DNA of 64,000 bases from an uncultured Spirochaetota bacterium (GTDB lineage: Bacteria; Spirochaetota; Spirochaetia; SZUA-6; Fen-1364), in assembly GCA_963781885.1 (NCBI GenBank), contig CAWAHW010000002.1, positions 128,001 through 192,000 on the forward strand. The letters run 5' to 3'. The notes beneath the pieces were generated by a model. That model ran no database searches. It was not told the DNA's origin and saw only the letters and a list, made by a program, of their open reading frames with translations. This document shows, piece after piece, positions 13,234 to 46,789 of the stretch (within the stretch, counting starts at the first letter, position 1; each line of letters opens with the position of its first letter). A program made the position numbers and the translations under genes.

Positions 13234-14039
13234 GCCGGGCGCTCGTGACCGGCGCCTCCCGCGGCATCGGGAAGGCCATTGCCGCTTCACTGGTCGCTGC
13301 CGGATACGAGGTTGTCGGCACGAGCCGGCATCCCGAGGCGCTTCCTCCGCACGACAGGATTGACGGCGTCCGCTACCTTGCACTCGACCTGTTGGAGGCC
13401 GGAAGCATCGCGTCGCTTGCGCGGGAAGCCGGACCGGTGGACGTCCTGGTGAGCAATGCCGGGCAGAGCCAGATCGGCGCGGTGGAAGAGCTGCCGGTCG
13501 ACGAGGTGAGAAGGCTTTTCGAGGCGAATCTCTTTGGCGCGCTGCGGGTGATACAGCTATTTCTTCCCGGCATGCGCCAGAGGCGCGCGGGAAAAGTCAT
13601 TGCGGTCGCTTCCATGGCCGCCGTCACACCCGTGCCTTTTCTCTCCTCCTACGCGGCGAGCAAGGCTGCCCTTGTGGCGATGATGCGCGGGCTGCGCTAT
13701 GAGACGGCATCCTTCGGGATCACGGTCGCCGTCGTTGCCCCCTTCGATATCAACACGAGCATTCCCCTGGACATCCGCTACGATGAGCGCTCGGCCTACA
13801 TGCCCGACATCGCCACGGTGCACCAGAGGCGCGACAAGGCCCTTGCCGAAGCGCCGGGACCCGATCTGGTCGCACGCAAGGTGATCTCCATCCTCCGCTC
13901 GCGCCGGCCCGGCTTCTTTCATCCCGTGGGCCGCGGGGCGGGGCTGAACGCGTTTCTCCTGCGGCATCTGCCCGCGAGGACAGTGGAGCGCATCATCCGG
14001 CGCCTCTTTGGGCTTCCGCGAGGGGCAGCTTCACGGTAA
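13230..14039 (+). CDS. Short-chain dehydrogenase, putative 3-dehydrocapnine (3-keto long-chain base) reductase
   Basis: TGASRGIG, SNAG and YAASK motifs; ATGA-coupled to the AOS gene. Confidence 0.8.
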   Translation: MSRALVTGASRGIGKAIAASLVAAGYEVVGTSRHPEALPPHDRIDGVRYLALDLLEAGSIASLAREAGPVDVLVSNAGQSQIGAVEELPVDEVRRLFEANLFGALRVIQLFLPGMRQRRAGKVIAVASMAAVTPVPFLSSYAASKAALVAMMRGLRYETASFGITVAVVAPFDINTSIPLDIRYDERSAYMPDIATVHQRRDKALAEAPGPDLVARKVISILRSRRPGFFHPVGRGAGLNAFLLRHLPARTVERIIRRLFGLPRGAASR

Positions 14040-15828
14040 AACTGGTCTTGCTGCCGGGCACACTGGAAAAGCTGAGGCTGCCGCGGTGGGCCTCCACGAT
14101 GTGCTGGCAGATCGACAAGCCCAGCCCCGTGTTTGTCTTCGTCATCTTCGTGCTGAAAAAAGGCGTGAAAATCCGGTCCTGGATCTCGCGGGGGATGCCG
14201 TAGCCGTTGTCCATGACGGTCACCTCCGCGCAGTCCTCCTCCCGGTTGTGCTGCATCGTCACCTCGATGAGACCGTGGTCCAGCACCGCCTCCACGCTGT
14301 TCATGACGAGGTTGATGAAGAGCTGCTTCAGCTTGTTCTCTTCACCGCTCACGACCAGCGGCTGCTCCGGGAAGCTTGTCCGCACCACGAGACGCTTCTG
14401 GTTCAGCTTGTGACCGAGCAGAAGGATCACCTCGCCCAGAAGCTCCCCGAGGTTCACGGTGCGGCCGTCCACCTGGCTCACGCGTGAGAAGGAGAGCAGG
14501 CTGCCGACGATCGCGACGATCCGGCTGAGCTCATTTTCGATCTTTCCGAGCTTCTCCTTCCCGTCCCCGTCCAGATCCTTCAGCTTCAGAAGCTCGACGT
14601 AGTTCTGGATGATGCCCAGCGGGTTGTTGATCTCGTGTGCCACCCCGGCGGCGAGCTCCGCGATGGAGGCGATCTTCTCCGCGCGCAGGAGGTACTCCTT
14701 CACGAAGTGGTCCATCGACACGTCTTCCAGCATGAGGATGGTCCCCGTGAACCTGTAGTCCTCGTCTTGCAGAGGGAAGCTCTTCAGGAGCAGGAAGCGT
14801 TCGTCGTTCACGGTGATGCCTTCCCAGCTGTGGCGCTCGCGGCCGACGATCTTTTCGCAGATGTCGCCGGCATCGCTCACGTGATGGACCTCCAGCATCT
14901 CGCCGATGGGCACGCGCGGCAGGACGTGATCGTCGGCGCCCAGGATGCGCCGCGCGGCCTGGTTGCTCAGGTAGATCCGGTTGTCGGTGTCCAGGATGAT
15001 CACGCCGACCGGCAGGTCGCTGATGATGCTCTCATTGTAGCGTTTGATCAGCGTGAGCTGCTGGTGCTGGCCCTCGCCCTCCTCGATGTTGAACATGAAG
15101 CTGTAGGCGAGCTTCAGGAGCTTGAACCGGTCCAGGTCGCGCACGAGCTCCGTGCCGCGCCGCTGCCCGTTCTTCAGCACCGTCACGCGGTCGGCGAACT
15201 TGAAGACCTCATCCACGCTCGTGGAGACGTAGATGATGGCCTTGTCGCGGCGGCGGTACTCGGTGAGAAGGCGGAACACCTGGTCCATCTCCTCCGAGTT
15301 CAGGCGGCTGGAGATCTCATCCACGACGAGGATGTCCGGCTCCAGGGATACGACGCGCGCGATCTCCACCATCTGCTGCTCGGCGAGGCTCAGCCGTCCG
15401 ACGGGCGTGTCCAGCGCGACGTGCACGTCGAGCTCCTCCAGCAGGTTGCGGCACCGTTCCCGCACCTCGGAGGGAAAACGCTGCCGCAGCCATACTTTCG
15501 GCAGCCTGCCCAGGGAGATGTTCTCCACGGCGTTCAGCGTCGGGATGAGGCTCAGGTTCTGGTAGACGATGCCGATGCCGTGCCGGATGGCCGCCCGGGG
15601 CGTGGGGAAATCCACCTCGCGGCCCTCCAGCAGGATCGTGCCCTTCTGCTTGCGCAGGTCGCCGCTCAGGATCTTCACGAGGCTGGATTTTCCGGAGCGT
15701 CGCTCCCCGACCAGGGCATGGATCTCCCCCGCGAACAGGTCGAAATCGACACCCTTCAGGGCGGCAACCTCGCCGAAGGAGAAATGGATGTTCTTCATCT
15801 GGAGAAGAGGAAGCCGGGGCTCCTTCAC
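13993..15828 (-). CDS. Fusion protein: degenerate sugar-ABC ATPase domain + PAS + histidine kinase
   Basis: aa ~8-245 RbsA/AraG-like (GERRSGKS, IVYQ, LSLAEQQMVEIAR, VVDE, ADRVTVLKNG); PAS 'SIISDLPVGVIILD...NQAARRILG'; H-box AHEINNPL, N-box NLVMNSVEA, G1 DNGYGI, F-box, G2 GLGLSI. One continuous ORF with no TM segment. Confidence 0.9.
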   Translation of the reverse strand: MKEPRLPLLQMKNIHFSFGEVAALKGVDFDLFAGEIHALVGERRSGKSSLVKILSGDLRKQKGTILLEGREVDFPTPRAAIRHGIGIVYQNLSLIPTLNAVENISLGRLPKVWLRQRFPSEVRERCRNLLEELDVHVALDTPVGRLSLAEQQMVEIARVVSLEPDILVVDEISSRLNSEEMDQVFRLLTEYRRRDKAIIYVSTSVDEVFKFADRVTVLKNGQRRGTELVRDLDRFKLLKLAYSFMFNIEEGEGQHQQLTLIKRYNESIISDLPVGVIILDTDNRIYLSNQAARRILGADDHVLPRVPIGEMLEVHHVSDAGDICEKIVGRERHSWEGITVNDERFLLLKSFPLQDEDYRFTGTILMLEDVSMDHFVKEYLLRAEKIASIAELAAGVAHEINNPLGIIQNYVELLKLKDLDGDGKEKLGKIENELSRIVAIVGSLLSFSRVSQVDGRTVNLGELLGEVILLLGHKLNQKRLVVRTSFPEQPLVVSGEENKLKQLFINLVMNSVEAVLDHGLIEVTMQHNREEDCAEVTVMDNGYGIPREIQDRIFTPFFSTKMTKTNTGLGLSICQHIVEAHRGSLSFSSVPGSKTSFTVKLPLAEAQRGAG

Positions 15829-15829
15829 G

Positions 15830-17155
15830 CTAGGGCTCCAGGCCGAGCTTCTTCATCTTGTTGTACAGCGTCTTTCGATGGATGCGCAGGATTTCCGCGG
15901 CCTTGTGCTTCACGCCGTCGCTCTTCTCCAGCGCGTCGAGGATCATCTGGCGCGACACCGATTCGTAGGCATTGGCCAGGGTTGCCTGCCCGCTCACCGC
16001 GTAGTCGGTATACTGCCGCGGCAGGTCATCCACGGTGAGCTCCGTTGTTTCGCAGAAGATCACCGCGCGCTCGATGCAGTTCTTCAGCTCCCGGACATTG
16101 CCCGGCCAGTTGTGCGCCAGGAGGACCTGTCGGACCCCGGGTGAAAGCCCCTGGATCTGCTTCGAGTACTGCTCGTTGAACTGCAGGAGGAAATACCCCG
16201 CCAGGAGGCCGATGTCCTCCCGGCGCTCGCGCAGGGGCGGCAGGGCGATGCTGATCACCGACATGCGGTAGAACAGGTCCTCGCGGAAGGTGCCCGCGGC
16301 GATCATCTGCGCGATGTTCTTGTTCGTGGCGGCGATGATGCGCACGTCGGCCTTCACCGCCCGGGAGCCGCCCACGCGCGTGAGCGCGCGCTCCTGCAGG
16401 ACGCGCAGCAGCTTCGCCTGCGTGTCGAGGCTCAGGTCGCCGATCTCGTCCAGGAAGAGGCTGCCGCCGTCGGCGAGCTCGAACTTGCCCCGGTGCATCT
16501 TGTGCGCCCCGGTGAACGCCCCTTCCTCGTGACCGAAGAGCTCGCTCTCCAGCAGCGTCTCGGGTATCGCCGCGCAGTTGATCTTCACGAACGGTTTCGC
16601 GCTGCGGTGGCTGAGCGCGTGCAGGGCGTCGGCGACGAGCTCCTTGCCCGTGCCGCTCTCACCGGTGATCACGACGGAGGCATCCGTCGGGCCGACCTTG
16701 TCGATGGTGCGGAATATCTCCCGCATGCGCGGGTTGACCGACCAGACGCGGAAGCTCGGGGGAAGCAGCGGCTCCACGCGGCGGCGGAGGCCATTCGTCC
16801 GCGCGAGCTGCTCCACCTCGTTGAGGAGCTCGGGGATGCGGAGCGGCTTCTCGTAGAAGTTCATCGCCCCGTACCGCATTGCCCGCACGACGTTCTCCGC
16901 GCTCGCGAATCCCGAGATCATGATGATGGGGATCGAGCGATCCCTTTCCTTGACCTCCTTGAGCAGTGCGATCCCGTCCATCACCGGCATCTTCACGTCC
17001 ACGATGATCAGGTCGGGCGGGTCCTCAACGAGGAGGCCCGGCACCTCTTCCGGAAGCGTCGTGTGGCGCGCGCGATAGCCGTGGGACGTCAGCAGCTCGG
17101 ACAGGGAAAGGCACATCTCAATCTCATCGTCCACGATGAGAACGTTGAAGGCCAT
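15830..17155 (-). CDS. NtrC-family sigma54-dependent response regulator
   Basis: REC (VDDE, DVKMP), AAA+ GESGTGKE, intact ESELFGH..GAFTGA, FLDEIG, WPGNVREL, Fis-type HTH 'AAEILRIHRKTLYNK'. Confidence 0.95.
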   Translation of the reverse strand: MAFNVLIVDDEIEMCLSLSELLTSHGYRARHTTLPEEVPGLLVEDPPDLIIVDVKMPVMDGIALLKEVKERDRSIPIIMISGFASAENVVRAMRYGAMNFYEKPLRIPELLNEVEQLARTNGLRRRVEPLLPPSFRVWSVNPRMREIFRTIDKVGPTDASVVITGESGTGKELVADALHALSHRSAKPFVKINCAAIPETLLESELFGHEEGAFTGAHKMHRGKFELADGGSLFLDEIGDLSLDTQAKLLRVLQERALTRVGGSRAVKADVRIIAATNKNIAQMIAAGTFREDLFYRMSVISIALPPLRERREDIGLLAGYFLLQFNEQYSKQIQGLSPGVRQVLLAHNWPGNVRELKNCIERAVIFCETTELTVDDLPRQYTDYAVSGQATLANAYESVSRQMILDALEKSDGVKHKAAEILRIHRKTLYNKMKKLGLEP

Positions 17156-17161
17156 GGCGCC

Positions 17162-17190
17162 ATGATAGGCGGCGGCGCGCCTGAAATCAA
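17162..17190 (-). promoter_or_regulatory. sigma70-type promoter for leaderless RR-kinase operon
   Basis: TTGATT-N17-TATCAT on the minus strand, 6 nt before ATG 17155; no SD. Confidence 0.55.
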
Positions 17191-17268
17191 GCGCGCGCCG
17201 CGGTTGCGTGCAGGAAGCGCCGTGTTGCGTGCCCCCCGGGATTCGTGTACAACGAGTGGTGAGAAGCC

Positions 17269-18360
17269 ATGCGCGGGGACACATCGACACGCCGGAGAGC
17301 TCTCGCCTGCGCCCTCTGCGTCACTCTCGCCGCCCTTGCCGCCGCCTCCTGTTCCGGGGCGAATGCCGGGCGGAAAGGCGCCTCTCCTCCCATCCGCATC
17401 GGATTCCTCGTGAAGCGCCCGGAAGAGCTGTGGTTCCAGAATGAATGGCGCTATGCGCAGAAATGCGCCGATACCAATGGCTTCCAGCTCATCAAGATCG
17501 GCGTGCCGGACGGCGACAAGGTGCTCGCCGCCATCGACAATCTTGCCGCGCAGGGCGCCCAGGGCTTCGTGATATGCACCCCTGACGTGCGCCTGGGACC
17601 GGCCATCCTCTCCCGCGCCTCCACCTATGGCATGAAGGTATTCACCGTCGACGACCAATTCGTGGGTCCTGACGGCAGCTTCATCAAGGTGCCCTACATG
17701 GGCATCTCCTCGCCGCAGATCGGCGCGGCGGTCGCGAACGCCCTCTACGACGAGTATCAGAAGCGCCAGTGGCGGCCCGAGGAGACGGCGGCACTCGCCG
17801 TGACATTCGACGAGCTGAACACCGTCAAGGAGCGCACCGACGCTGCGGCGGAAACCCTGAAGGCGCGAAGCTTCCCCGCGGACCGCATCTTCCGCATTCC
17901 CGAAAAAACGGCGGACCTGCCCGGCGCATTCGACGCCGCGAGCATCGCCCTGTCCCAGCACGCCGAGGTAAAGCGCTGGCTGGTTTTTTCCATCAACGAC
18001 GAGGGGGTGCTGGGGGCCATTCGCGCGATGGAAAACCGCGGCTTCAACGCCGACACGGTGATCGGCATCGGCATTGGCTCCAGCCTGGGCATCATCGAGT
18101 TTCGCAAGCGCGAGATCACGCCCTTCTTCGCGTTCTGTCTCATCAACCCATACATGCACGGCTTCCAGACCACCGAATGGCTCTACCGGTGGGTGAGCGC
18201 CGGCATCCAGCCGCCGATGGACACCCGCACCCCCGGTACGATCGTGACGCGCGACGACTATCGGGACATCTTCCAGAGCCGCGGACTTGAGGAGCTGCTC
18301 CTCCCGCAGCCGGGCGACGCGAAGCCGCAGGACGCCGACAGGGGACGGGGCGAATCATGA
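17269..18360 (+). CDS. araF: L-arabinose-binding-protein-like lipoprotein
   Basis: 'IGFLVKRPEELWFQNEW', 'GFVICTPD', 'VDDQFV', 'NDEGVLG' closely parallel E. coli AraF; lipobox-like LAAASC. Confidence 0.85.
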   Translation: MRGDTSTRRRALACALCVTLAALAAASCSGANAGRKGASPPIRIGFLVKRPEELWFQNEWRYAQKCADTNGFQLIKIGVPDGDKVLAAIDNLAAQGAQGFVICTPDVRLGPAILSRASTYGMKVFTVDDQFVGPDGSFIKVPYMGISSPQIGAAVANALYDEYQKRQWRPEETAALAVTFDELNTVKERTDAAAETLKARSFPADRIFRIPEKTADLPGAFDAASIALSQHAEVKRWLVFSINDEGVLGAIRAMENRGFNADTVIGIGIGSSLGIIEFRKREITPFFAFCLINPYMHGFQTTEWLYRWVSAGIQPPMDTRTPGTIVTRDDYRDIFQSRGLEELLLPQPGDAKPQDADRGRGES

Positions 18361-19334
18361 ACGCCCGCGCGGATGCCCTTTCTCGCGGCCGGCTCGTCGC
18401 CGCCCGGGTGCGCGGCGCCTGGAGCCGCTACACGAGCCTCTTGATCCTGGTGGTCATCGTCGCCGCCTCTTCGATATTCGTCCCGCACTTCCTCTCTTGG
18501 ATCAACATCATCGGCTTGGGCCTGTCGATCTCCATGGTGGGCATGGTGGCCTGCTCGATGCTCCTGTGCCTGGCCTCCGGTGGATTCGATCTCTCGGTGG
18601 AATCGGTCGTCGCATTCTCCGGGGTGCTCGCCGCGGTCGTGATCAATTCCAGCGGCAGCGTGCTCGGTGGCGTCCTGGCAGGCATACTGGCCGGCGGTCT
18701 TGTCGGCGCGGTCAACGGGGCCATCGTCTCCTACTTTTCCCTGAATCCGCTGATCACCACCCTCGCCGTCATGCAGATCGTGCGCGGTCTCGGCTTTCTG
18801 GTCTCCCAGGGCTCGGCAGTGGGCGTGAACAATACGGGCTTTTTCGTTCTGGGTGCCGGGCGCATCCTGTCCATCCCGAACCCGATCTGGATCACCGTTT
18901 TTCTCATGATCCTCTTCGCGTTCGTGCTCACGCGCACCTCGTTCGGTCGCAACATGCGCGCGGTCGGGGGAAATGAGACGGCGGCGCGCTTGAAAGGGAT
19001 CGCGGTCAACCGCACGAAGATGATCGTCTATATCGTGCAGGGCTTGATCGCGGGTTTTGCCGGTGTCGTGCTCGCCTCCCGCATGACCAGCGGTCAGCCC
19101 AATACGTCCCAGGGATTCTCCATGGACGTGATTTCCGCCTGCGTCCTGGGCGGCGTATCGCTCTCGGGTGGCGTGGGGACGCTCAGCGGCACGATCATCG
19201 GTGTGCTGATCATGGGCTCCGTCCAGAATGCCATGAATCTTCTCAATATCCCGACCTTCTACCAGTACATCCTGCGCGGCTTCATCCTTCTCCTCGCCGT
19301 GCTTCTCGACCAGTTCAAACGCAGGAGCAAGTAG
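18357..19334 (+). CDS. araH: L-arabinose ABC permease-like protein
   Basis: 'GMVACSMLLCLASGGFDLSV', 'ASRMTSGQP', 'ISACVLGGVSLSGG' match AraH; ATGA-coupled to araF. Confidence 0.85.
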   Translation: MNARADALSRGRLVAARVRGAWSRYTSLLILVVIVAASSIFVPHFLSWINIIGLGLSISMVGMVACSMLLCLASGGFDLSVESVVAFSGVLAAVVINSSGSVLGGVLAGILAGGLVGAVNGAIVSYFSLNPLITTLAVMQIVRGLGFLVSQGSAVGVNNTGFFVLGAGRILSIPNPIWITVFLMILFAFVLTRTSFGRNMRAVGGNETAARLKGIAVNRTKMIVYIVQGLIAGFAGVVLASRMTSGQPNTSQGFSMDVISACVLGGVSLSGGVGTLSGTIIGVLIMGSVQNAMNLLNIPTFYQYILRGFILLLAVLLDQFKRRSK

Positions 19335-19347
19335 CCGCCGCGCCGCA

Positions 19348-19399
19348 ACGTGCACGAATGTGCACGTCGACTATTGACGAGCGTGGCGCCACGTGCACG
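19348..19399. promoter_or_regulatory. Putative enhancer (UAS) pair for the sigma54 activator
   Basis: ACGTGCAC-GAAT-GTGCACGT (19348-19367) and the related CGTGGCGCCACGTGCACG (19382-19399), 33 bp apart and 80-135 bp upstream of the -24 box. Confidence 0.55.
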
Positions 19400-19479
19400 A
19401 CGTCCTGGGCAGCGCGACTGGGGCACATTCTATTTGCTTACCATGAATGCAGTTGACTCATTTTCCCCGCGCGCTGCCC

Positions 19480-19496
19480 TTGGTACGCCGCTTGCA
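19480..19496 (+). promoter_or_regulatory. sigma54 (-24/-12) promoter
   Basis: TTGGTACG-CCGC-TTGCA; one mismatch to TGGCACG-N4-TTGCA with exact spacing. Confidence 0.8.
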
Positions 19497-19539
19497 CCAT
19501 GAGCAGCGAGGCCCGGAACGGCTCGAGGAGGCTCAGGCG

Positions 19540-20327
19540 GTGGCGACGGCAGGCGACTACAAGACAGCAATCCGCATGGAAGGCATCGAGAAGTACTTCG
19601 GCAATGTCGCGGCGTTGCGCGGCATCAACCTGGAGGTCGGCAGGGACGAGGTCATCGGGTTGATCGGCGACAACGGGGCAGGAAAGTCCACGCTGATCAA
19701 GATCATGACGGGTGTCTTCCCCCCACCTCGGGTGCAATGTACCTGCGCGACCAGCCCGTATCCTTCTCGGGCTATAGCGTCCGTGAGGCGCACAAGCGCG
19801 GCATCGAGACGGTCTACCAGGACAAGTCACTCGGGGAGAAGCAGGTCCTCTGGAGGAACTTCTTCATCGGTCGGGAGATCACGCTCCCCTTCGGCTTCAT
19901 CGACGTGAAGAAGGAAAAGAAGATCGCCCAGGGCATCATGGTGGATACCATCGGGTTCCGCGGCAAGGGCATCACCGTGGAGTCGCGCGCAAGCAAGCTC
20001 TCCGGCGGCGAGCGCCAGGGCGTGGCCATCGGCCGCGCCATGCATTTCGAGGCGGACCTGATCATCCTGGATGAGCCCACGGTGGCCCTCTCCCTGAAAG
20101 AGGTGCGCAAGGTGCTCTCCTTCGTGCAGAAGATCAAGGAGGCCGGCAAGGCCTGCATCTACATCACGCACGATCTGCAGGATGTCTACCAGATATCGGA
20201 CCGTTTCATCGTGCTGGATAGAGGGGAGATCGTGGCAAGCATCGCGAAGAACGAGATCAGCCTGAAGGAGCTGGACACGTTCCTGCTCGAATACTCGCAC
20301 GGCCTGAAAGACAAGGTGCAGCCATGA
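19540..20327 (+). CDS. Sugar ABC transporter ATP-binding protein (single domain), frameshift in C-run near 19720
   Basis: GDNGAGKS in the first frame; LSGGERQ, ILDEPT and YITH in the second. One more C in the C6 run restores FPPTSG. SD GAGGAGG before GTG. Confidence 0.85.
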
Positions 20328-21379
20328 AACACGGAAACTCGCGCTTCGCATTCATCGGGAAGATCGAGGGGCTGCCGATCGCGGCGGTGCTTGCCATCCT
20401 CTACGTCATCTTCATCTTCACCGCGCCGTCGGTCTTTACCGGATATCGCATCTACATGTCTTTCTTCCAGACCGTGCCGCCGATGCTCGTGCTTGCAATC
20501 GGCCTGACCTTCATCATCACCGCGGGGGAGATCGACCTGAGCTTCCCCGCCGTCGTGGCGCTGTCGGGTTTCGTCTTTACCTGGGTTTTCAAGACCTACC
20601 ACGCCCCATGGATCGGCTTCATCCTCGCACTCGCCTCGGGCGCCCTGGTGGGGTATATCAACGGGATCCTGGTGGCGCGCCTGCGGGTGCCGTCCATCAT
20701 GGCAACCCTGGCGACGCAGTTCTTCTGGTACGGCGTGACGCTCCTGATCGCGGGCGGTCTCCAGATCAATATCGAAGAGATCCAGACCAATCTCATCCAC
20801 ACCGTGTTCGTCGGTCGGATCTTCGGCGTCTTCCCCGCGCAGGCGCTCTGGTCGCTCGGTGTCGTGATAGTGTTCTGGTTCATCCTGAACCGGCACAAGT
20901 TCGGCGAGGCGATCATGTTCATCGGCGACAATGCCGACGTCGCGCGCGTAATGGGCATCAACGTCGAGACGACGCGGATCAAGCTGTTCACCATGCATGG
21001 CGTGCTCGCCGCCTTTGCCGGGCTCCTCCTGACGATAGAGATCAACGTCTTCTTCCCGACGCAGGGACAGGGCATGCTCCTGCCGGTCATGGCGGCTGTC
21101 TTCATCGGCGGCACGTCGATCGCGGGCGGCCAGGGCGCCATCGTGGGCACCTTTTTCGGCTCGTACATCATCGGCTCCCTGGAAGCAGGCGTCGTGGCAA
21201 CAGGCATCGGCGGCTACTGGGTGCAGCTCGTGGAAGGAGTCGTGATGGCAGCCTCCGTGATCCTCAACGTGATCATCGGGGACGAGGGTGCCGCCCTTCT
21301 GGCGCGGACCGCCCGCAAGTGGGCCGTGCCGGAACAGGCGCCGCCCGGCAAGGAGCCCGCGGCTCACGGCGATTCATGA
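20324..21379 (+). CDS. Sugar ABC transporter permease
   Basis: 'AGEIDLSF', 'AAVFIGGTSIAGG', multiple TM segments. Confidence 0.9.
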   Translation: MKHGNSRFAFIGKIEGLPIAAVLAILYVIFIFTAPSVFTGYRIYMSFFQTVPPMLVLAIGLTFIITAGEIDLSFPAVVALSGFVFTWVFKTYHAPWIGFILALASGALVGYINGILVARLRVPSIMATLATQFFWYGVTLLIAGGLQINIEEIQTNLIHTVFVGRIFGVFPAQALWSLGVVIVFWFILNRHKFGEAIMFIGDNADVARVMGINVETTRIKLFTMHGVLAAFAGLLLTIEINVFFPTQGQGMLLPVMAAVFIGGTSIAGGQGAIVGTFFGSYIIGSLEAGVVATGIGGYWVQLVEGVVMAASVILNVIIGDEGAALLARTARKWAVPEQAPPGKEPAAHGDS

Positions 21380-21510: not shown

Positions 21511-22491
21511 GTGCGGAAGATGAAATGGGTCATTCTGGCTTTGGTGATCTTCGGGGCGCTGTTCGCAGCCCAGACCTGGGCGGCGGACAAGCAGCTCGTC
21601 ATCTACATGCAGTGCGGCGGGACGCAGGGCGACGGCGCCACGCTTGCGCGCACCAACGGCGCACGGGCGGCGGCCGCGGCGAACAACGTCAAGCTGATCG
21701 AACAGTACTCCAAGTGGGATCAGCAGACGATGATCGACCAGTTCAAGCAGGCCATGGCGGCCAACCCTGACGGCATCGAGATCATGGGCCACCCGGGCGA
21801 GGCAGCATTTGCGGCGCTCGTCGACCAGGCCGAGGCACAGGGCATCATCGTCACCAGCGGCAACAACCCGCTGCCGAACATCGAGGCGAAGTACCACGAT
21901 AAGGGCTTTGGGTACGCGGGCGCCGATCTCTACCAGGGCGGCTACCTCACGGGCCAGTCGATGGTCAAGGCAGGCAACCTGAAGGCCGGTGACAAGGCTC
22001 TCGTGTACGACATCTGGCACCAGGAAGGCCGCAGCCGCAGCAGCCAGGGCGTCTATGACGCGCTGGCAAAGGCCGGACTCATCGTCGACAAGCTCGACGT
22101 GTCCGCGGCGGTGGACAGCGACACCTCGCTTGCCATCCCCATCCTCACGGCGTATCTCCAGGCGCATCCCGACCTCAAGGCCATCGGCACCCAGCACGGC
22201 AGCGTGACCGCAATCCTGCCGAAGGTGCTCCAGGCGGCAGGGAAGAAGCCCGGCGACATCATCTGCGGCGGTATCGACCTTTCGCCCGCCACGGTAAGCG
22301 CCATCCAGGGCGGCTGGATTACCGCCAGCTTCGACCAGGTGCTGTATCTCCAGGGATACCTCCCGGTCCTCCAGATCGTCCTCACAAAGCGCTACCTGAT
22401 CCCCGGTCTGCACATCGACACCGGCGTCGGCACCGTGACCCCGCTGAACGTGGCCACGATCAAGCCCCTCATCGACCAGGGAATCCGCTAG
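21511..22491 (+). CDS. Sugar ABC transporter substrate-binding protein
   Basis: Signal peptide; type I periplasmic-binding fold motifs 'PDGI', 'DQVLYLQGY'. Confidence 0.88.
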   Translation: MRKMKWVILALVIFGALFAAQTWAADKQLVIYMQCGGTQGDGATLARTNGARAAAAANNVKLIEQYSKWDQQTMIDQFKQAMAANPDGIEIMGHPGEAAFAALVDQAEAQGIIVTSGNNPLPNIEAKYHDKGFGYAGADLYQGGYLTGQSMVKAGNLKAGDKALVYDIWHQEGRSRSSQGVYDALAKAGLIVDKLDVSAAVDSDTSLAIPILTAYLQAHPDLKAIGTQHGSVTAILPKVLQAAGKKPGDIICGGIDLSPATVSAIQGGWITASFDQVLYLQGYLPVLQIVLTKRYLIPGLHIDTGVGTVTPLNVATIKPLIDQGIR

Positions 22492-22511
22492 ACGGAGCAT
22501 GTTTGTGTGAT

Positions 22512-22544
22512 GTGCCCCCGCGAAAGCGGGGGCACTTTCTTTTT
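22512..22544 (+). terminator. Rho-independent terminator
   Basis: GTGCCCCCGC-GAAA-GCGGGGGCAC followed by TTTCTTTTT. Confidence 0.85.
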
Positions 22545-22562
22545 CACGCGATCGATACGCCG

Positions 22563-23372
22563 TCACACGCTGATATTTTTTCTCTGGAACGACCACAGGG
22601 AGCCGCCCACCAGCGCGAGCGTCGCGGCAAGCGGCACGGCGATGTCGACGCCGGACAGCCCATGCTGCATCACGTCGGCGGTGTCGTAGTACGCGTAGAA
22701 GGAGATCGCGCGGAGCGCGTGGACGAACGAGCCGGTGGCCGTCCGCCCGAGCACGTCAATGAACCAGCTCGCGATGAGAAAAACAACCGCGATGGCCGCC
22801 GCATGCGACTTTCGCCGGGCACAGGTCGCGACGAAGACAGTGAAGGCGAGCACGATCAGCGTCCCCGGCAGGATGTACAGGCTCGCATCGATGATGGTTC
22901 GGGTGGCGATATGCACCGCGGGGGTGGCGCGAAGACTGAGGAAGATCGCGCCGGTGCTGATGACAATGACCCCGACGGCCAGAACGCCGGATGCGAGGAA
23001 TTTCTCCAGCACGACGCGCCAGCGGGGCACGGGCATGCTGAGCAGCACGTCCATGATCCCCCGGTCTTCCTCGTTGGCCGTGACATTCAGTCCCATGATG
23101 ATCGCGTAGACGCCGAATATGACGAGGATGATCGCGTAGTACTGGTTGTTGAGGAAGCCCGCCGGGGAGGCCAGGAACGCGAGATCCCCGCCGCCCACCA
23201 TCTGGACGACGAACAGGGGCATTCTGGAAATCGCCTCCGCGGTCGCGCGCATGCCATTGGCATCCGGCACGGCGATGATGTTGAGGAGCGCGATCAACCC
23301 GATGCCGATTCCCCAATAGATCATCGACCGCCACCCGCGCCGCAGCGTCTCGAAGAATATCGCACGAGGCAT
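22563..23372 (-). CDS. ABC-2 type permease
   Basis: About 6 TM segments; 'ANEEDRGIMDVLLSMPVPRWRVVLEKFLA'. Confidence 0.85.
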   Translation of the reverse strand: MPRAIFFETLRRGWRSMIYWGIGIGLIALLNIIAVPDANGMRATAEAISRMPLFVVQMVGGGDLAFLASPAGFLNNQYYAIILVIFGVYAIIMGLNVTANEEDRGIMDVLLSMPVPRWRVVLEKFLASGVLAVGVIVISTGAIFLSLRATPAVHIATRTIIDASLYILPGTLIVLAFTVFVATCARRKSHAAAIAVVFLIASWFIDVLGRTATGSFVHALRAISFYAYYDTADVMQHGLSGVDIAVPLAATLALVGGSLWSFQRKNISV

Positions 23373-23382
23373 GCCGTCCTCC

Positions 23383-24192
23383 TTACAGGCCGATGTTCCG
23401 CCGCTGAAAGAGCCACGTGCCGCCCGCCATCAGCACGACCGTGACGACGCCCAGCACGAGCACATTGCCCCAGTCCAGGCCGTGGCGGATCACGGCCGTG
23501 CTGTCGTAGTAGCTGTAGAACGAGAGAAAGCGCAGCGTGCCGGCGAATGAGGCGCTCGCCTGGCGTCCGATGCTGTCGATGAAGTAGCTGCCAAGGATCA
23601 CCACGATGGCGACTGCCGCCGCAACATTCTTGCGGCGGATCACGGACGTGAGAAGCACCGTCATCGCGATCACGACGAGGGTGCTTGGCAGCATGTTGAG
23701 GGTCGTTTCCAGCAGCCTGACCTGGTCGATGGACAATGCGGGCGATGCCCGCAGACCGATCCACAGTCCGCCGAAGGTCAGGGCGATGATGCCCGCGATG
23801 ATGACGACGAAGGCCAGGAACTTTTCCAGCACCAGGCGCCAGCGGGAAACGGGCAGGCTCAACAGCACGTCCATGATCCTGCTGTCTTCCTCGTTCGCCG
23901 TGATGTTCAAGCCCGCAATCACCCCGTAGGCCGCCAGGATGAGCAGGGCGTAGCTGAAGAAGATCATGTTCAGGAACCCCGTCGGCGTCGCCATCGAGGC
24001 GGCGTCCTCTCCCCCGAACATGGCGAGCATGGCGGGCGGCACGCTTTGAAAGGCGCGCGCCATGTCCTTCAGCATGTCGGCGTTGGGGACGATCAGGGCC
24101 ACCGACAATCCCAGCGCGCCGATCCCCAGCCCCCACCAGAGCATCTGCATCCAGTTGCGCCTCAGGGTCTCCTCGAATACCGCCCCGGTCAT
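23383..24192 (-). CDS. ABC-2 type permease (paralogue of neighbour)
   Basis: 'ANEEDSRIMDVLLSLPVSRWRLVLEKFLA'; same 269-aa length as the adjacent paralogue. Confidence 0.85.
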   Translation of the reverse strand: MTGAVFEETLRRNWMQMLWWGLGIGALGLSVALIVPNADMLKDMARAFQSVPPAMLAMFGGEDAASMATPTGFLNMIFFSYALLILAAYGVIAGLNITANEEDSRIMDVLLSLPVSRWRLVLEKFLAFVVIIAGIIALTFGGLWIGLRASPALSIDQVRLLETTLNMLPSTLVVIAMTVLLTSVIRRKNVAAAVAIVVILGSYFIDSIGRQASASFAGTLRFLSFYSYYDSTAVIRHGLDWGNVLVLGVVTVVLMAGGTWLFQRRNIGL

Positions 24193-45274: not shown

Positions 45275-46789
45275 ATGAAGCTGACGGACAACGTCCTGGA
45301 AATCAGAGACCTCGTGAAGGATTTCCCCAGCGTACGGGCGGTCAATAACGTCAGTTTCGACATCAAGAGGAACACCGTGCATTGCCTGGTGGGAGAGAAC
45401 GGGGCGGGCAAATCCACCCTCATCAAGATCCTCACCGGCGCCTCGATGCGTTCGAGCGGCAGCATTCTCCTGAACGGGATGGCATACACCCCGCACAGCA
45501 CGCGCGACGCGAAGCAGAAAGGCATCAGCACGCTGTTCCAGGAATTGAACGTGGTGGATCAGCTCACCGTGGAGGAAAACCTCACACTCGGCATGGAGGA
45601 CACGACCTTTGGATTCCTCCGCAAAACGGACAAGATCAATACGATGGTGAGCGTGATGAACAGCCTCGAACCGTCCATCAGGCCGCGGCAGCTCGTCTCC
45701 ACCTTGAGCGTCGCGAAAAAACAGATCGTGGAGATCGCGAAGGCTGTCGCCACGGAGTCTGACATCATCATCATGGATGAGCCGACTGCCGCGATCTCCG
45801 AAAGCGAAATCAAGAGATTGTTCGCCATCATCAAGAGCCTCCGAGAAAAGAACGTGACCGTCATCTACATATCGCACAGGCTCGACGAGATTTTCGAACT
45901 GGGCGACTACGTGACGGTCATGCGCGATGGAAAGCATATCGACACCAAGCTCGTGTCGGAGATCAAGGACCGATCGGAGCTGGTCAAGATGATGATCGGA
46001 AAGACCGTTTTCGAGCAGTACACGCCCAAAGAGGGCGAATGCAGGGACGCCATCCTCCAGGTCAGGCACCTCACCAACCACAAGCTCAACGACATTTCCT
46101 TCGAGGTCCACCAGGGAGAGATCGTTGGATTCTACGGCCTCGTGGGCGCCGGAAAGACCGAGCTCGCGCGTGCAATCTACGGGGTCGACCCTTACGAGGG
46201 GGATATCCTCTTCAAGGGCAGGAAGCTGCCGCCCTTCCCCGACAAGGTCATCGCCGCGGGGATCGCGCTTGTGCCGGAGGAGCGACGCTCGCAGGGGCTT
46301 TTCACCATCCTCACCATCCGCGGCAATGTGCCCGTCATGAACATGAAAAAAATCTCCCGCAACGGTTTCATCGACGCGGGGCAGGAGAGAAGGGTCACGC
46401 TCGACTACATCGACAAGCTCAGGATTTCCACGAACAGCACGGAGAAGGAAGCGTCGCAGCTCTCCGGGGGCAACCAGCAAAAAGTGGTCCTGGCCAAGTG
46501 CCTTTTTGCGGACGCGGACCTGCTCATGCTCGACGAGCCCACACGCGGCATCGACGTGGGGGCGAAGAGCGAGATCTACGGCATCATCCGCCAGCTTTCC
46601 CATGAGGGGAAATCCATCATGATCTTTTCCTCGGAGCTGCCCGAGGTCGTCAACATATGCGACAGCATCTACCTGCTCTATGACGGGAGCATGAAGGCCA
46701 CCATAAGGAATGGCTGCGACATCGACAGCGAAAAGATCCTCCATATCGTCACGGGCGGAGATGTCACCTCTGGTGACGGCGGGGAATGA
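45275..46789 (+). CDS. Sugar ABC ATP-binding protein (two-domain, RbsA-like)
   Basis: GENGAGKS, MDEPTAA, YISHRLDE, LSGGNQQK, DEPTRGIDVGAK. Confidence 0.95.
   Translation: MKLTDNVLEIRDLVKDFPSVRAVNNVSFDIKRNTVHCLVGENGAGKSTLIKILTGASMRSSGSILLNGMAYTPHSTRDAKQKGISTLFQELNVVDQLTVEENLTLGMEDTTFGFLRKTDKINTMVSVMNSLEPSIRPRQLVSTLSVAKKQIVEIAKAVATESDIIIMDEPTAAISESEIKRLFAIIKSLREKNVTVIYISHRLDEIFELGDYVTVMRDGKHIDTKLVSEIKDRSELVKMMIGKTVFEQYTPKEGECRDAILQVRHLTNHKLNDISFEVHQGEIVGFYGLVGAGKTELARAIYGVDPYEGDILFKGRKLPPFPDKVIAAGIALVPEERRSQGLFTILTIRGNVPVMNMKKISRNGFIDAGQERRVTLDYIDKLRISTNSTEKEASQLSGGNQQKVVLAKCLFADADLLMLDEPTRGIDVGAKSEIYGIIRQLSHEGKSIMIFSSELPEVVNICDSIYLLYDGSMKATIRNGCDIDSEKILHIVTGGDVTSGDGGE

Follow-up and report, generated by a model that had tools for sequence, protein, structure and literature searches.

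A 64,000-nucleotide stretch of a contig from an uncultured Spirochaetota bacterium (positions 128,001 to 192,000 of CAWAHW010000002.1, assembly GCA_963781885.1; hereafter the window) codes for a 611-residue protein in which the nucleotide-binding domain (NBD) of an ATP-binding cassette (ABC) transporter is fused to the PAS, HisKA and HATPase_c domains of a histidine kinase. Judged from its motifs and their conservation among relatives, this NBD is probably a conserved, non-canonical, hydrolysis-poor nucleotide-binding module used for sensing. We tentatively propose that it serves as the input of a soluble histidine kinase with a PAS domain, and that this kinase, together with a sugar-binding protein and a permease coded close by (hereafter SBP1 and Perm1), forms a sugar receptor, a reading that we regard as quite possible.

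Domain architecture of the fusion kinase

The gene for the fusion kinase (13993..15828, minus strand, GTG start) was delineated from its open reading frame (ORF), translation and Pfam matches; all coordinates within it refer to the same strand. The NBD occupies residues 1-242 (15103..15828) and is of the type seen in the N-terminal half (N-half) of CUT2 ATPases; Pfam ABC_tran (PF00005) covers residues 24-172 with 94.8 bits against a cut-off of 25, and the region to which an earlier note on the window had drawn attention, 15090-15828, corresponds to residues 1-246, that is, to this domain. It is followed by a linker of residues 243-264 (15037..15102), predicted to be disordered based on its predicted local distance difference test (pLDDT) values (33-39 in the two blocks covering it; 243-264 below 50), and then by a PAS domain of residues ~265-370 (14719..15036; Pfam PAS at 266-370, 27.1 bits, cut-off 22.6), modeled as a helix and five strands. 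The kinase core (14017..14718) comprises the HisKA/DHp region at 371-445 and the HATPase_c region at 457-604, for which the Pfam matches are HisKA at 390-450 (51.2 bits) and HATPase_c at 496-604 (88.7 bits).

The phospho-acceptor His398 (14635-14637, minus strand) is invariant across all 131 fusion sequences used for the tree described below, and the residues of the N, G1 and G2 boxes (N506, N510, D540, G542, G544, G568 and G570) are invariant in alignment A2; the fusion protein is a sensor histidine kinase of the HisKA family. It has no membrane segment, its highest 19-residue Kyte-Doolittle mean being 1.31 versus 2.54 in Perm1. An AlphaFold2 model built with 38 relatives in the alignment (mean pLDDT 79) lays the protein out as a folded NBD at 1-242 (block pLDDT mostly 83-94), the low-confidence linker at 243-264, a PAS fold, a long DHp hairpin and the catalytic domain.

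The best NCBIfam match of the NBD is to positions 5-222 of the 504 positions of AraG (NF008442), and its 197.2 bits fail the cut-off of 689; with a score this far under the cut-off and without two tandem NBDs, the fusion protein is not an AraG. Similarly, residues 256-607 resemble AtoS (NF008468) with 230.1 bits, below the cut-off of 646. The database names of its relatives, such as "AtoS" and "ATP-binding cassette domain-containing protein", are automatic.

Nucleotide-binding and catalytic motifs of the NBD

The earlier note, which used the RbsA-like ATPase coded in the same window (45275-46789, plus strand) as a control, had described the loss of the catalytic His alongside retention of the Walker A Lys, the Q-loop Gln and the Walker B Asp-Glu. 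The motifs it quoted read exactly so in the translation, and the control aligns with the fused NBD across them without a gap. Walker A is GERRSGKS (G41-S48, 15685..15708), in which Lys47 and Ser48 are kept and Arg44 takes the position of the second, inner Gly; the broader P-loop pattern GxxxxGK[ST] is still matched. The translation further places the Q-loop Gln at residue 90 (V88-Y-Q90; 15559..15561). The stretch equivalent to the signature is a degenerate LSLAEQQ (146-152, 15373..15393) that does not match LSGGQ. Walker B, ILVVDE, runs on into ISSRLN (166-177, 15298..15333), so that D170 and E171 are kept and both the Pro-Thr and the Asp of the D-loop, normally PTxxLD, are absent; the D-loop reads SRLN, with Asn177 in place of Asp, where SALD is expected. 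Finally, the H-switch is YVSTSVDE (200-207, 15208..15231), and Thr203 (15220-15222) stands where the catalytic His should be. The corresponding N-half motifs of the control are GENGAGKS, LSVAKKQ, DEPTAAI and YISHRLDE, and its C-terminal half (C-half) carries LSGGNQQ.

For comparison we assembled 22 CUT2 reference proteins, namely 21 two-domain ATPases from related loci and the control from the window. All 22 N-halves have GENGAGKST, DEP, the H-switch His and a signature without GG; all 22 C-halves have LSGGNQQ and Ser at the H-switch, and in 20 of them Arg or Ala stands in for the Walker A Lys. As the Walker motifs of the N-half are thus complemented by the signature of the C-half, two-domain CUT2 ATPases have one consensus site. 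This agrees with the premise of the earlier note that the LSGGNQQ signature of these enzymes comes from the C-terminal domain. The fusion carries the N-half type only, with no C-half and hence no LSGGNQQ. Its NBD therefore resembles AraG, RbsA, MglA and XylG in having a homologous N-half with the same type of degenerate signature, but differs from them in that their GENGAGKST is replaced by GE[HR][RG]xGKS, in lacking the C-half, the Pro-Thr after Walker B and the D-loop Asp, and, in the clade of the window, in the missing His.

Conservation and history of the motifs across the fusion family

A word-based protein search found 2107 proteins with E ≤0.001 among 8000 scored. The best 120 of these were taken into a first alignment of 120 rows longer than 500 residues, in which the window protein is counted twice (P0001 and P0008) and a 385-residue entry (P0020) is omitted. 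Among these best 120 of the 2107, the Lys, the Gln and the Asp-Glu are each present in all 120 rows, Arg occupies Walker A position 4 in 114, and the H-switch has His in 88 and Ser, Thr, Gln, Pro or Asn in the other 32. An exhaustive search of representatives clustered at 50% identity gave 150 listed matches, of which the 120 with 570-660 residues were kept and 30 shorter or longer ones dropped. Aligned over their first 275 residues together with the window protein (121 rows), these have the Walker A Lys in 120 (one row being gapped), the Walker B Asp in 118, the Glu in 109, the Q-loop Gln in 101 and the His in 75. They fall into two sequence subgroups: that of the window, with GEH-R-AGKS ... 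DE-I-S, and a distant one (~30% identical) with GEHGAGKS ... LNLSDRV ... ILDEALEKLS ... LFITHRIDD.

To these 121 rows we added ten closer homologs from the word-based search and computed a FastTree phylogeny of the resulting 131 rows with the H-switch columns removed. The window protein belongs to a clade with support 98, in which none of the 21 rows has the H-switch His (Ser in eight, Thr in seven, Asn and Pro in two each, Ala and Gln in one each); the 77 rows of the tree that do have it all lie among the 110 outside this clade. Mapped onto the tree, the His/non-His state requires 19 changes, of which at least 10 are forced by well-supported branches; when the His labels are shuffled the mean rises to 41.9 changes, and none of 500 shuffles is as low as 19. 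The loss is thus specific to a clade and not a trait of the fusion family. Read from the tree, it is old and stable in the clade of the window, and the position has apparently been free to vary afterwards.

The residues for nucleotide binding follow a different course. As the earlier note had argued from the one protein, they are retained: the Walker A Lys is present in all 130 non-gapped rows (20 of 20 in the clade, one gapped) and the Walker B Asp in 128 of 131 (21 of 21 in the clade). The catalytic Glu of Walker B is found in 119 of the 131 rows and in 19 of the 21 clade rows, the other two having Asp, and the Q-loop Gln in 19 of 21 clade rows and 92 of the 110 others. Arg at Walker A position 4 marks 14 of the 21 clade rows versus 20 of the 110 others, and all 21 have Ile or Val at the position of the Pro after Walker B. 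Three departures are family-wide, namely the absence of an LSGG signature, of the Pro-Thr after Walker B and of the D-loop Asp: across the 131 rows a residue other than Gly is the most common at both Gly positions of the signature, no fusion has LSGG, and Asp is not among the commonest residues at the D-loop position. The segment after the Q-loop is kept in the fusion consensus as VYQxxxxIPxLNAxENIFxGR. The genome-derived non-His fusions outside the tree include L116, with Gln at the position of the Walker B Glu, and L118, with Asp there. L116 (9007-10839 of G182:C1) is a natural fusion that joins this Gln (ILDQIA) to a Glu at the H-switch, a combination corresponding to the classical laboratory change for ATP trapping.

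On these grounds the fused NBD appears to descend from the N-half of a CUT2 sugar-transporter ATPase and to keep what Mg-ATP binding needs, and the parts of a catalytically competent sandwich dimer appear to have been lost, the signature and D-loop family-wide and the H-switch His in the clade. In the clade of the window catalysis seems to be relaxed, with a variable H-switch position and a Glu that is sometimes replaced. The earlier description of the domain as catalytically crippled accordingly stands only in part: the loss of His is real and stable in the clade, where all 21 rows lack it, but 77 of the 131 family rows keep it, and the presence of the catalytic Glu in 119 leaves residual hydrolysis possible.

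The earlier note had also considered that this copy might merely be decaying. We compared the gene with its counterparts in the two nearest species, G246 and G254, both of the same genus as the window, using the ratio of nonsynonymous to synonymous substitution rates (dN/dS). In the NBD it is 0.07 versus G246 and 0.14 versus G254, and in the rest of the protein 0.12 and 0.19, respectively. The NBD is under stronger purifying selection than the remainder of the kinase, and with values of 0.07-0.14 the window copy is not decaying.

Distribution and gene neighborhoods of the fusion family

The fusion was detected in 45 of 201 sampled genomes of the class Spirochaetia (E ≤1e-60), with up to six copies per genome, and in 30 of 92 genomes of the order (E ≤1e-150). 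There are more than 100 full-length relatives, and the wider family comprises more than 100 clusters at 50% identity and the two deep subgroups. Scans of large genome and metagenome contig collections with the whole protein were dominated by ordinary CUT2 ATPases sharing the peptide AEQQMVEI and retrieved only two true fusions, L001 (93%) and L131 (53%); the gene contexts were therefore taken from the genome searches.

With one scoring script we examined the surroundings (~20 kb) of 37 copies, of which 20 belong to the subgroup of the window, 12 belong to the distant one and five are near relatives. A response regulator gene abuts the kinase gene in 36 of the 37 loci, the exception being L225, where the regulator is in two pieces. 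A CUT2-type permease (BPD_transp_2) is likewise found in 36, the exception, L223, ending 2.2 kb past the regulator; and a two-domain CUT2 ATPase is found in 32, being absent from L111, L223, L225, L222 and L224. The strict sigma-54 -24/-12 pattern TGGYAY-N5-TTGCW is found in 22 of the 37; where a site is present, it mostly occupies the space between the regulator gene and the transporter operon, oriented toward the operon. Both sequence subgroups show the same neighborhood. Based on this contextual information, we propose that the fusion family is a two-component system in which a sigma-54 promoter is likely to govern expression of a CUT2 sugar transporter. The window shows the full-length architecture, the upstream regulator and the adjoining CUT2 transporter that together characterize the family.

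One locus with a His-containing fusion, L111 (4155-6181 of G031:C2), has one NBD-like stretch beside its permease versus two in most loci, and may be another locus without a two-domain ATPase. In a language-model atlas the fusion has a cluster of its own with 62 members, Spirochaetota being the commonest phylum; at lower scores the atlas also offers, as leads only, ABC_tran-HisKA and ABC_tran-GAF-HisKA clusters in which Actinomycetota is the commonest phylum. Two longer relatives, P0129 (851 residues) and P0276 (829 residues), combine an ABC domain with GAF and the kinase core. The use of an ABC domain as a kinase input may thus extend beyond the spirochaetes.

The window locus and its ATPase-less transporter pair

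Directly upstream of the kinase gene and on the same strand lies the gene for an NtrC-type sigma-54-dependent response regulator (15830..17155, minus strand), whose stop immediately precedes the kinase start. It has the domains Response_reg (86.9 bits), Sigma54_activat (239.8 bits) and HTH_8 (48.6 bits), and its translation contains the GAFTGA motif. Its start is likely Met46 of the long ORF (ATG at 17153-17155), the long-ORF start at 17290 being probably unused. A sigma-70-like sequence, TTGATT-17-TATCAT (17162-17190, minus strand), ends seven bases ahead of this ATG, and the mRNA of the regulator-kinase operon may be leaderless or nearly so. The gap between the regulator and SBP1 genes also holds a GC-rich inverted repeat, GGCGCGCC TGAAATCAA GCGCGCGCC (17160-17200), partly conserved in G246 and G254.

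In the opposite direction, the gene for SBP1 (17269..18360, plus strand) codes for an AraF-like homolog of the periplasmic L-arabinose-binding protein with a lipoprotein-like signal peptide (Pfam Peripla_BP_1, 114.2 bits). Its residues 42-340 match the E. coli L-arabinose-binding protein in PDB (E 1.2e-90, 307 bits), and the two can be aligned across 300 residues. Of what we take to be the sugar-contact residues of the E. coli protein, Lys10, Glu14, Trp16, Phe17, Asp89, Asp90, Arg151 and Asn205 are kept in SBP1, and Met108 and Met204 are changed to Ile and Asn232 to Gly; we treat both sets as a lead only. As ligand, L-arabinose or a closely related sugar is a plausible first candidate. The gene for Perm1 (18357..19334, plus strand), whose start overlaps the SBP1 stop, codes for an AraH-type permease (NCBIfam AraH equivalog, 438.7 bits, cut-off 378; Pfam BPD_transp_2); a PDB sequence search found no solved homolog of Perm1, which leaves no template for mapping contact residues. 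There is no ATPase gene between SBP1 and Perm1.

After a gap of 205 bases, Perm1 is followed by a second, complete set of transporter genes on the plus strand. The first codes for a free single-domain ABC ATPase (19540..20327) with canonical GDNGAGKST, LSGGERQ, LDEPT and YITHD motifs and a GTG start after GAGGAGG. In this assembly a frameshift at six consecutive C residues (19719-19724) divides it into two frames. Its ortholog in G254 is in one frame, and a short-read contig from run X1 (depth 5.9), which is otherwise identical over 19501-19746, has one extra C that restores the frame (TGVFPPTSGAMYL...); X1 is possibly the assembly's own source sample, so that its evidence on the frame may not be independent of the assembly. 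The frameshift is probably a homopolymer miscall, with strain variation as the alternative, and we do not uphold the gene as a pseudogene. It is followed by Perm2 (20324..21379), a second BPD_transp_2 permease (143.8 bits) that is 26-28% identical to Perm1, and by SBP2 (21511..22491), a second sugar-binding protein of the Peripla_BP_4 type (89.1 bits) whose PDB and NCBIfam matches are weak. An intrinsic terminator-like hairpin (22512..22535, plus strand), with a 10-pair stem containing nine G-C pairs and then a T-rich tail, ends the operon. An ORF of 313 codons (22503-23444, plus strand) begins inside this hairpin and matches nothing in Pfam or NCBIfam; it is unlikely to be a gene. Elsewhere in the window's genome (G000), a paralog of this second transporter occurs at G000:C4:6225-9091, its binding protein being 48% identical to SBP2 and its permease 40% identical to Perm2.

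A sigma-54 -24/-12 promoter, TGGTACG-N4-TTGCA (TGGTACGCCGCTTGCA; 19481..19496, plus strand), is situated between the genes for Perm1 and the free ATPase, 44 bases upstream of the GAGGAGG-GTG start. It is the only sigma-54 match in the 64-kb window, with 0.24 expected and 22 of 100 shuffled sequences having at least one. In an alignment of the three species (the window, G246 and G254), the -24 and -12 elements, the ribosome-binding site and the start are kept, and the spacer and flanks vary. Upstream of it, CGTGCACG occurs at 19349 and 19392, with a 7-of-8 copy at 19361 (region 19349..19401), as putative activator-binding sites; this 8-mer has 10 matches in the window versus 2.33 expected, of which just two are in the promoter region, and the block of ~19380-19401 that contains it is conserved in the three species. 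The genome codes for rpoN (188.4 bits, above the cut-off). With the regulator domains, rpoN and the conserved -24/-12 promoter all in place, the locus has what is expected of a sigma-54-dependent two-component system. Neither sigma-54 pattern finds a site upstream of SBP1; a TTGCGT-N17-TACAAC conserved there by eye failed the sigma-70 scan rule. The X2 metatranscriptome covers only conserved ABC motifs at 90-95% likeness and gives no evidence of expression of the locus.

Orthologs of SBP1 and Perm1 occur in four sister loci, L117, L124, L125 and L130, where the binding proteins are 45-47% and the permeases 57-65% identical. The gene order in these is binding protein, two-domain AraG-like ATPase and permease; a sigma-54 site is found just upstream of the AraF-like gene in L124, L125 and L130; and their kinases, none of which is a row of the tree, have Ser at the H-switch. 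In the window, in G246 (kinase 93% identical) and in G254 (locus 83-88% identical), there is no ATPase gene between SBP1 and Perm1, the block of free ATPase, Perm2 and SBP2 follows Perm1, and the sigma-54 site is behind Perm1. Among the loci examined the free single-domain ATPase is found only in the genus of the window. Perm1 and SBP1 each occur only once in the genome, where the next permease is 37% identical. No protein of the genome reaches the AraG cut-off of 689, the best of its 11 CUT2 ATPases scoring 562, and nine of the 11 have a permease gene of their own nearby. We also considered, and rejected, a coupling of the loss of His to the loss of the neighboring ATPase: the four sister loci have Ser in place of His and yet keep their two-domain ATPase.

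In G254 the kinase fusion (L222, 10493-12209 of G254:C44) is broken after the PAS domain by a change of frame with ~36 residues missing, the rest of the locus being intact; this may be either a real loss of the kinase or an assembly error. The database entry P0020 is the 385-residue stump of this broken kinase.

The earlier note had concluded that the complex senses rather than transports. The presence of SBP1 and Perm1 without an ATPase gene of their own fits this view. The His-less sister loci, however, retain a full ATPase, which indicates that the loss of His did not accompany a loss of transport.

Proposed receptor mechanism and its alternatives

The domain anatomy, the motif states and their history, the purifying selection, the family neighborhood, the conserved promoter and rpoN were computed directly. 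We infer that the NBD binds ATP without turning it over and docks on Perm1, and likewise infer the ligand and which way the signal runs. In ABC importers the segment after the Q-loop faces the permease. As the NBD keeps both the Q-loop and the conserved segment behind it, sitting on a permease is the most parsimonious use for it, and a kinase dimer would supply two NBDs, the number that a transporter needs. We accordingly posit that the kinase works with the NtrC-type regulator coded directly upstream and that its dimer offers two NBDs to the cytoplasmic face of Perm1, where they would replace the transporter ATPase. Sugar-loaded SBP1 would dock on the outside, and Perm1 would bring the two ATP-loaded NBDs together. 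With neither an LSGG signature nor a His to complete turnover, hydrolysis would be slow or absent and the closed state would persist. Closure might then change the distance or orientation of the two PAS-DHp arms, switching the kinase so that the regulator is phosphorylated, opens the sigma-54 promoter at 19481 and raises the production of the second transporter (free ATPase, Perm2 and SBP2). In the sister loci the sensor would share its permease with a real ATPase and control the operon of that same transporter; in the genus of the window the ATPase would have been lost, leaving the AraF/AraH pair as a pure receptor. The full form of this proposal, that AraF and AraH no longer transport but close hydrolysis-dead, ATP-loaded NBDs and so lead via phosphorylation to sigma-54 transcription of a different transporter, we consider possible though doubtful.

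A complex model of NBD residues 1-250 with Perm1, computed with custom alignments, scores 0.56, which amounts to weak support, against 0.00 for the best of three controls; its runs agree in at least 82% of contacts and the pLDDT of the partner is at least 73. The mark for such models is reached by 58 of 80 solved complexes and by two of 110 mismatched pairs, and scores at the mark of up to 0.60 include only seven of the 80 solved complexes along with both of the passing mismatches. We take the model as a small push only toward docking on Perm1. The general seating of an ABC domain on a permease is well known to such models, and we therefore give it little weight.

Several observations weigh against the receptor proposal. 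Modeling may lay any ABC domain on any ABC permease, and the linker between NBD and PAS (243-264), predicted to be disordered, offers no obvious rigid path for a signal. With 119 of the 131 rows retaining the Glu and 77 the His, much of the family seems still to need some hydrolysis. L117, L124, L125 and L130, with Ser for His, keep a full AraG-like ATPase, so that at these loci this ATPase and the kinase would be sharing one permease or competing for it. In the window, the scan found no terminator-like site between Perm1 and the free ATPase gene, so that there may be read-through and Perm1 may be powered by the free ATPase; for two of the 11 CUT2 ATPases of the genome no gene like that of Perm1 or Perm2 occurs within 6 kb, and either might energize Perm1 in trans. 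Finally, the kinase gene of G254 is broken after PAS, and the circuit is either dispensable or mis-assembled there.

One alternative retains the nucleotide but dispenses with the permease: the NBD would bind cytoplasmic ATP or ADP, dimerization would respond to the energy state or to a soluble cue, and the transporter would only be a regulated target. We consider this unlikely. The protein is soluble, its flexible linker would suit control by dimerization, the complex model with Perm1 is only weak, and the invariant nucleotide-binding residues (Lys and Asp) are explained equally well. It leaves unexplained, however, the constant CUT2 N-half type of the domain and the CUT2 transporter alongside it in 36 of 37 loci, the conservation of the segment after the Q-loop, and the ATPase-less AraF-AraH pair kept beside the kinase in three species. 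A second alternative, to us distinctly unlikely, is a flux sensor with a working motor, in which the fused NBD would be a slow ATPase that energizes AraF/AraH and the kinase would read the transport cycle in the fashion of BceS-BceAB. Against such a motor stand the absence of the His from all 21 clade rows with its position drifting, the lack in a homodimer of any LSGG to complete either site, and the separate full ATPase retained by sister loci with the same loss of His; substitutions of the H-switch His reportedly abolish turnover in other ABC ATPases, such as HlyB and MalK. The Walker A Lys, Walker B Asp-Glu and Q-loop Gln are nevertheless present, with Glu in 19 of 21 clade rows, and no other ATPase gene adjoins the SBP1-Perm1 pair; flux sensing also has a precedent (PMC4513084).

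It is, in our view, very unlikely that the NBD instead pairs head-to-tail with an LSGG-bearing domain, either the free ATPase or a CUT2 C-half, so that one consensus site would be rebuilt and the kinase would sense or brake that ATPase. CUT2 ATPases follow exactly such an asymmetric plan, and the free ATPase, with LSGGERQ and full catalytic motifs, is coded in the same locus in three species; but among the loci examined it is confined to this genus, 32 of 37 loci have self-contained two-domain ATPases, and with Thr at the H-switch even a site rebuilt in this way would be crippled. That the odd motifs are random damage in a gene being lost is almost certainly wrong: the broken kinase gene in G254 and the frameshifted free ATPase of this assembly could be read this way, but the dN/dS of the NBD is 0.07-0.14, the same motif state extends throughout a deep clade, the kinase frame is intact in the window's genome and in G246, and the frameshift of the free ATPase is contradicted by the short-read contig.

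Relationship to known systems and significance

Bce systems have the kinase and the transporter as separate proteins; their kinase sits in the membrane and works with a regulator of the OmpR type, and their transporter is an exporter-like resistance pump whose ATPase is active. Here, in contrast, a soluble kinase carries the NBD as a covalently joined part of its own chain, beside a CUT2 importer that depends on a binding protein, and its regulator is a sigma-54 activator. The proposed likeness lies in a kinase that has no ligand-binding domain of its own and relies on an ABC transporter as its sensor: the histidine kinase BceS uses the ABC transporter BceAB in this manner (flux sensing) and controls the synthesis of a transporter (PMC4513084, PMC9169098). 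Fusion of a transporter module to a kinase also has a parallel, in that the CrbS/CbrA kinases carry a covalently fused SLC5 solute-symporter domain as input (PMC5715377). In CrbS/CbrA the membrane-embedded symporter itself is fused; here it is a soluble ATPase subunit, so that a separate permease and binding protein would be needed. The kinase core itself is similar to the PAS-HisKA-HATPase_c core of AtoS/NtrB-type kinases, which likewise have NtrC-type sigma-54 activators as partners, although the fusion scores below the AtoS cut-off; AtoS, moreover, is a membrane protein with a periplasmic part. In the PstSCAB-PhoU-PhoR system a PAS kinase that lacks a periplasmic sensor monitors the state of an ABC importer from within the cytoplasm; there the ATPase PstB is separate and active and PhoU serves as adaptor, whereas here the ATPase-like domain is within the kinase. 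Degenerate, non-hydrolytic nucleotide sites are known from CFTR and SUR, in which ATP binding and closure act as a switch and not as a motor; these are eukaryotic full-length ABC proteins with no kinase output, and their likeness to the fusion is one of principle only.

A search of the full-text literature by titles and the openings of abstracts, which did not cover subscription journals, found no publication on a kinase with a fused ABC ATPase domain. The arrangement would be a further form of transporter-coupled kinase sensing, and the window contributes the history of the catalytic motifs, the test for selection and the ATPase-less variant with its relocated promoter.

How a cytoplasmic kinase senses the outside without a membrane-spanning sensor is a recurring question, and kinases are known to manage it with a transporter as co-sensor (Bce, Pst/PhoR) or with a membrane transporter fused to them (CbrA/CrbS). 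In the present family the fused part is the soluble motor subunit of an importer that relies on a binding protein, and its catalytic machinery has been dismantled stepwise. The family offers a natural series, from His-containing forms beside complete transporters through His-less forms to a genus without the transporter ATPase and with the output promoter moved, in which the coupling between closure of the ABC domain and control of the kinase can be tested, as well as parts for engineered sugar sensors with a sigma-54 output. If the receptor proposal is true, the wider family, including the related NBD-GAF-kinase forms of Actinomycetota, would be a general and as yet undescribed class of receptors built on ABC transporters.

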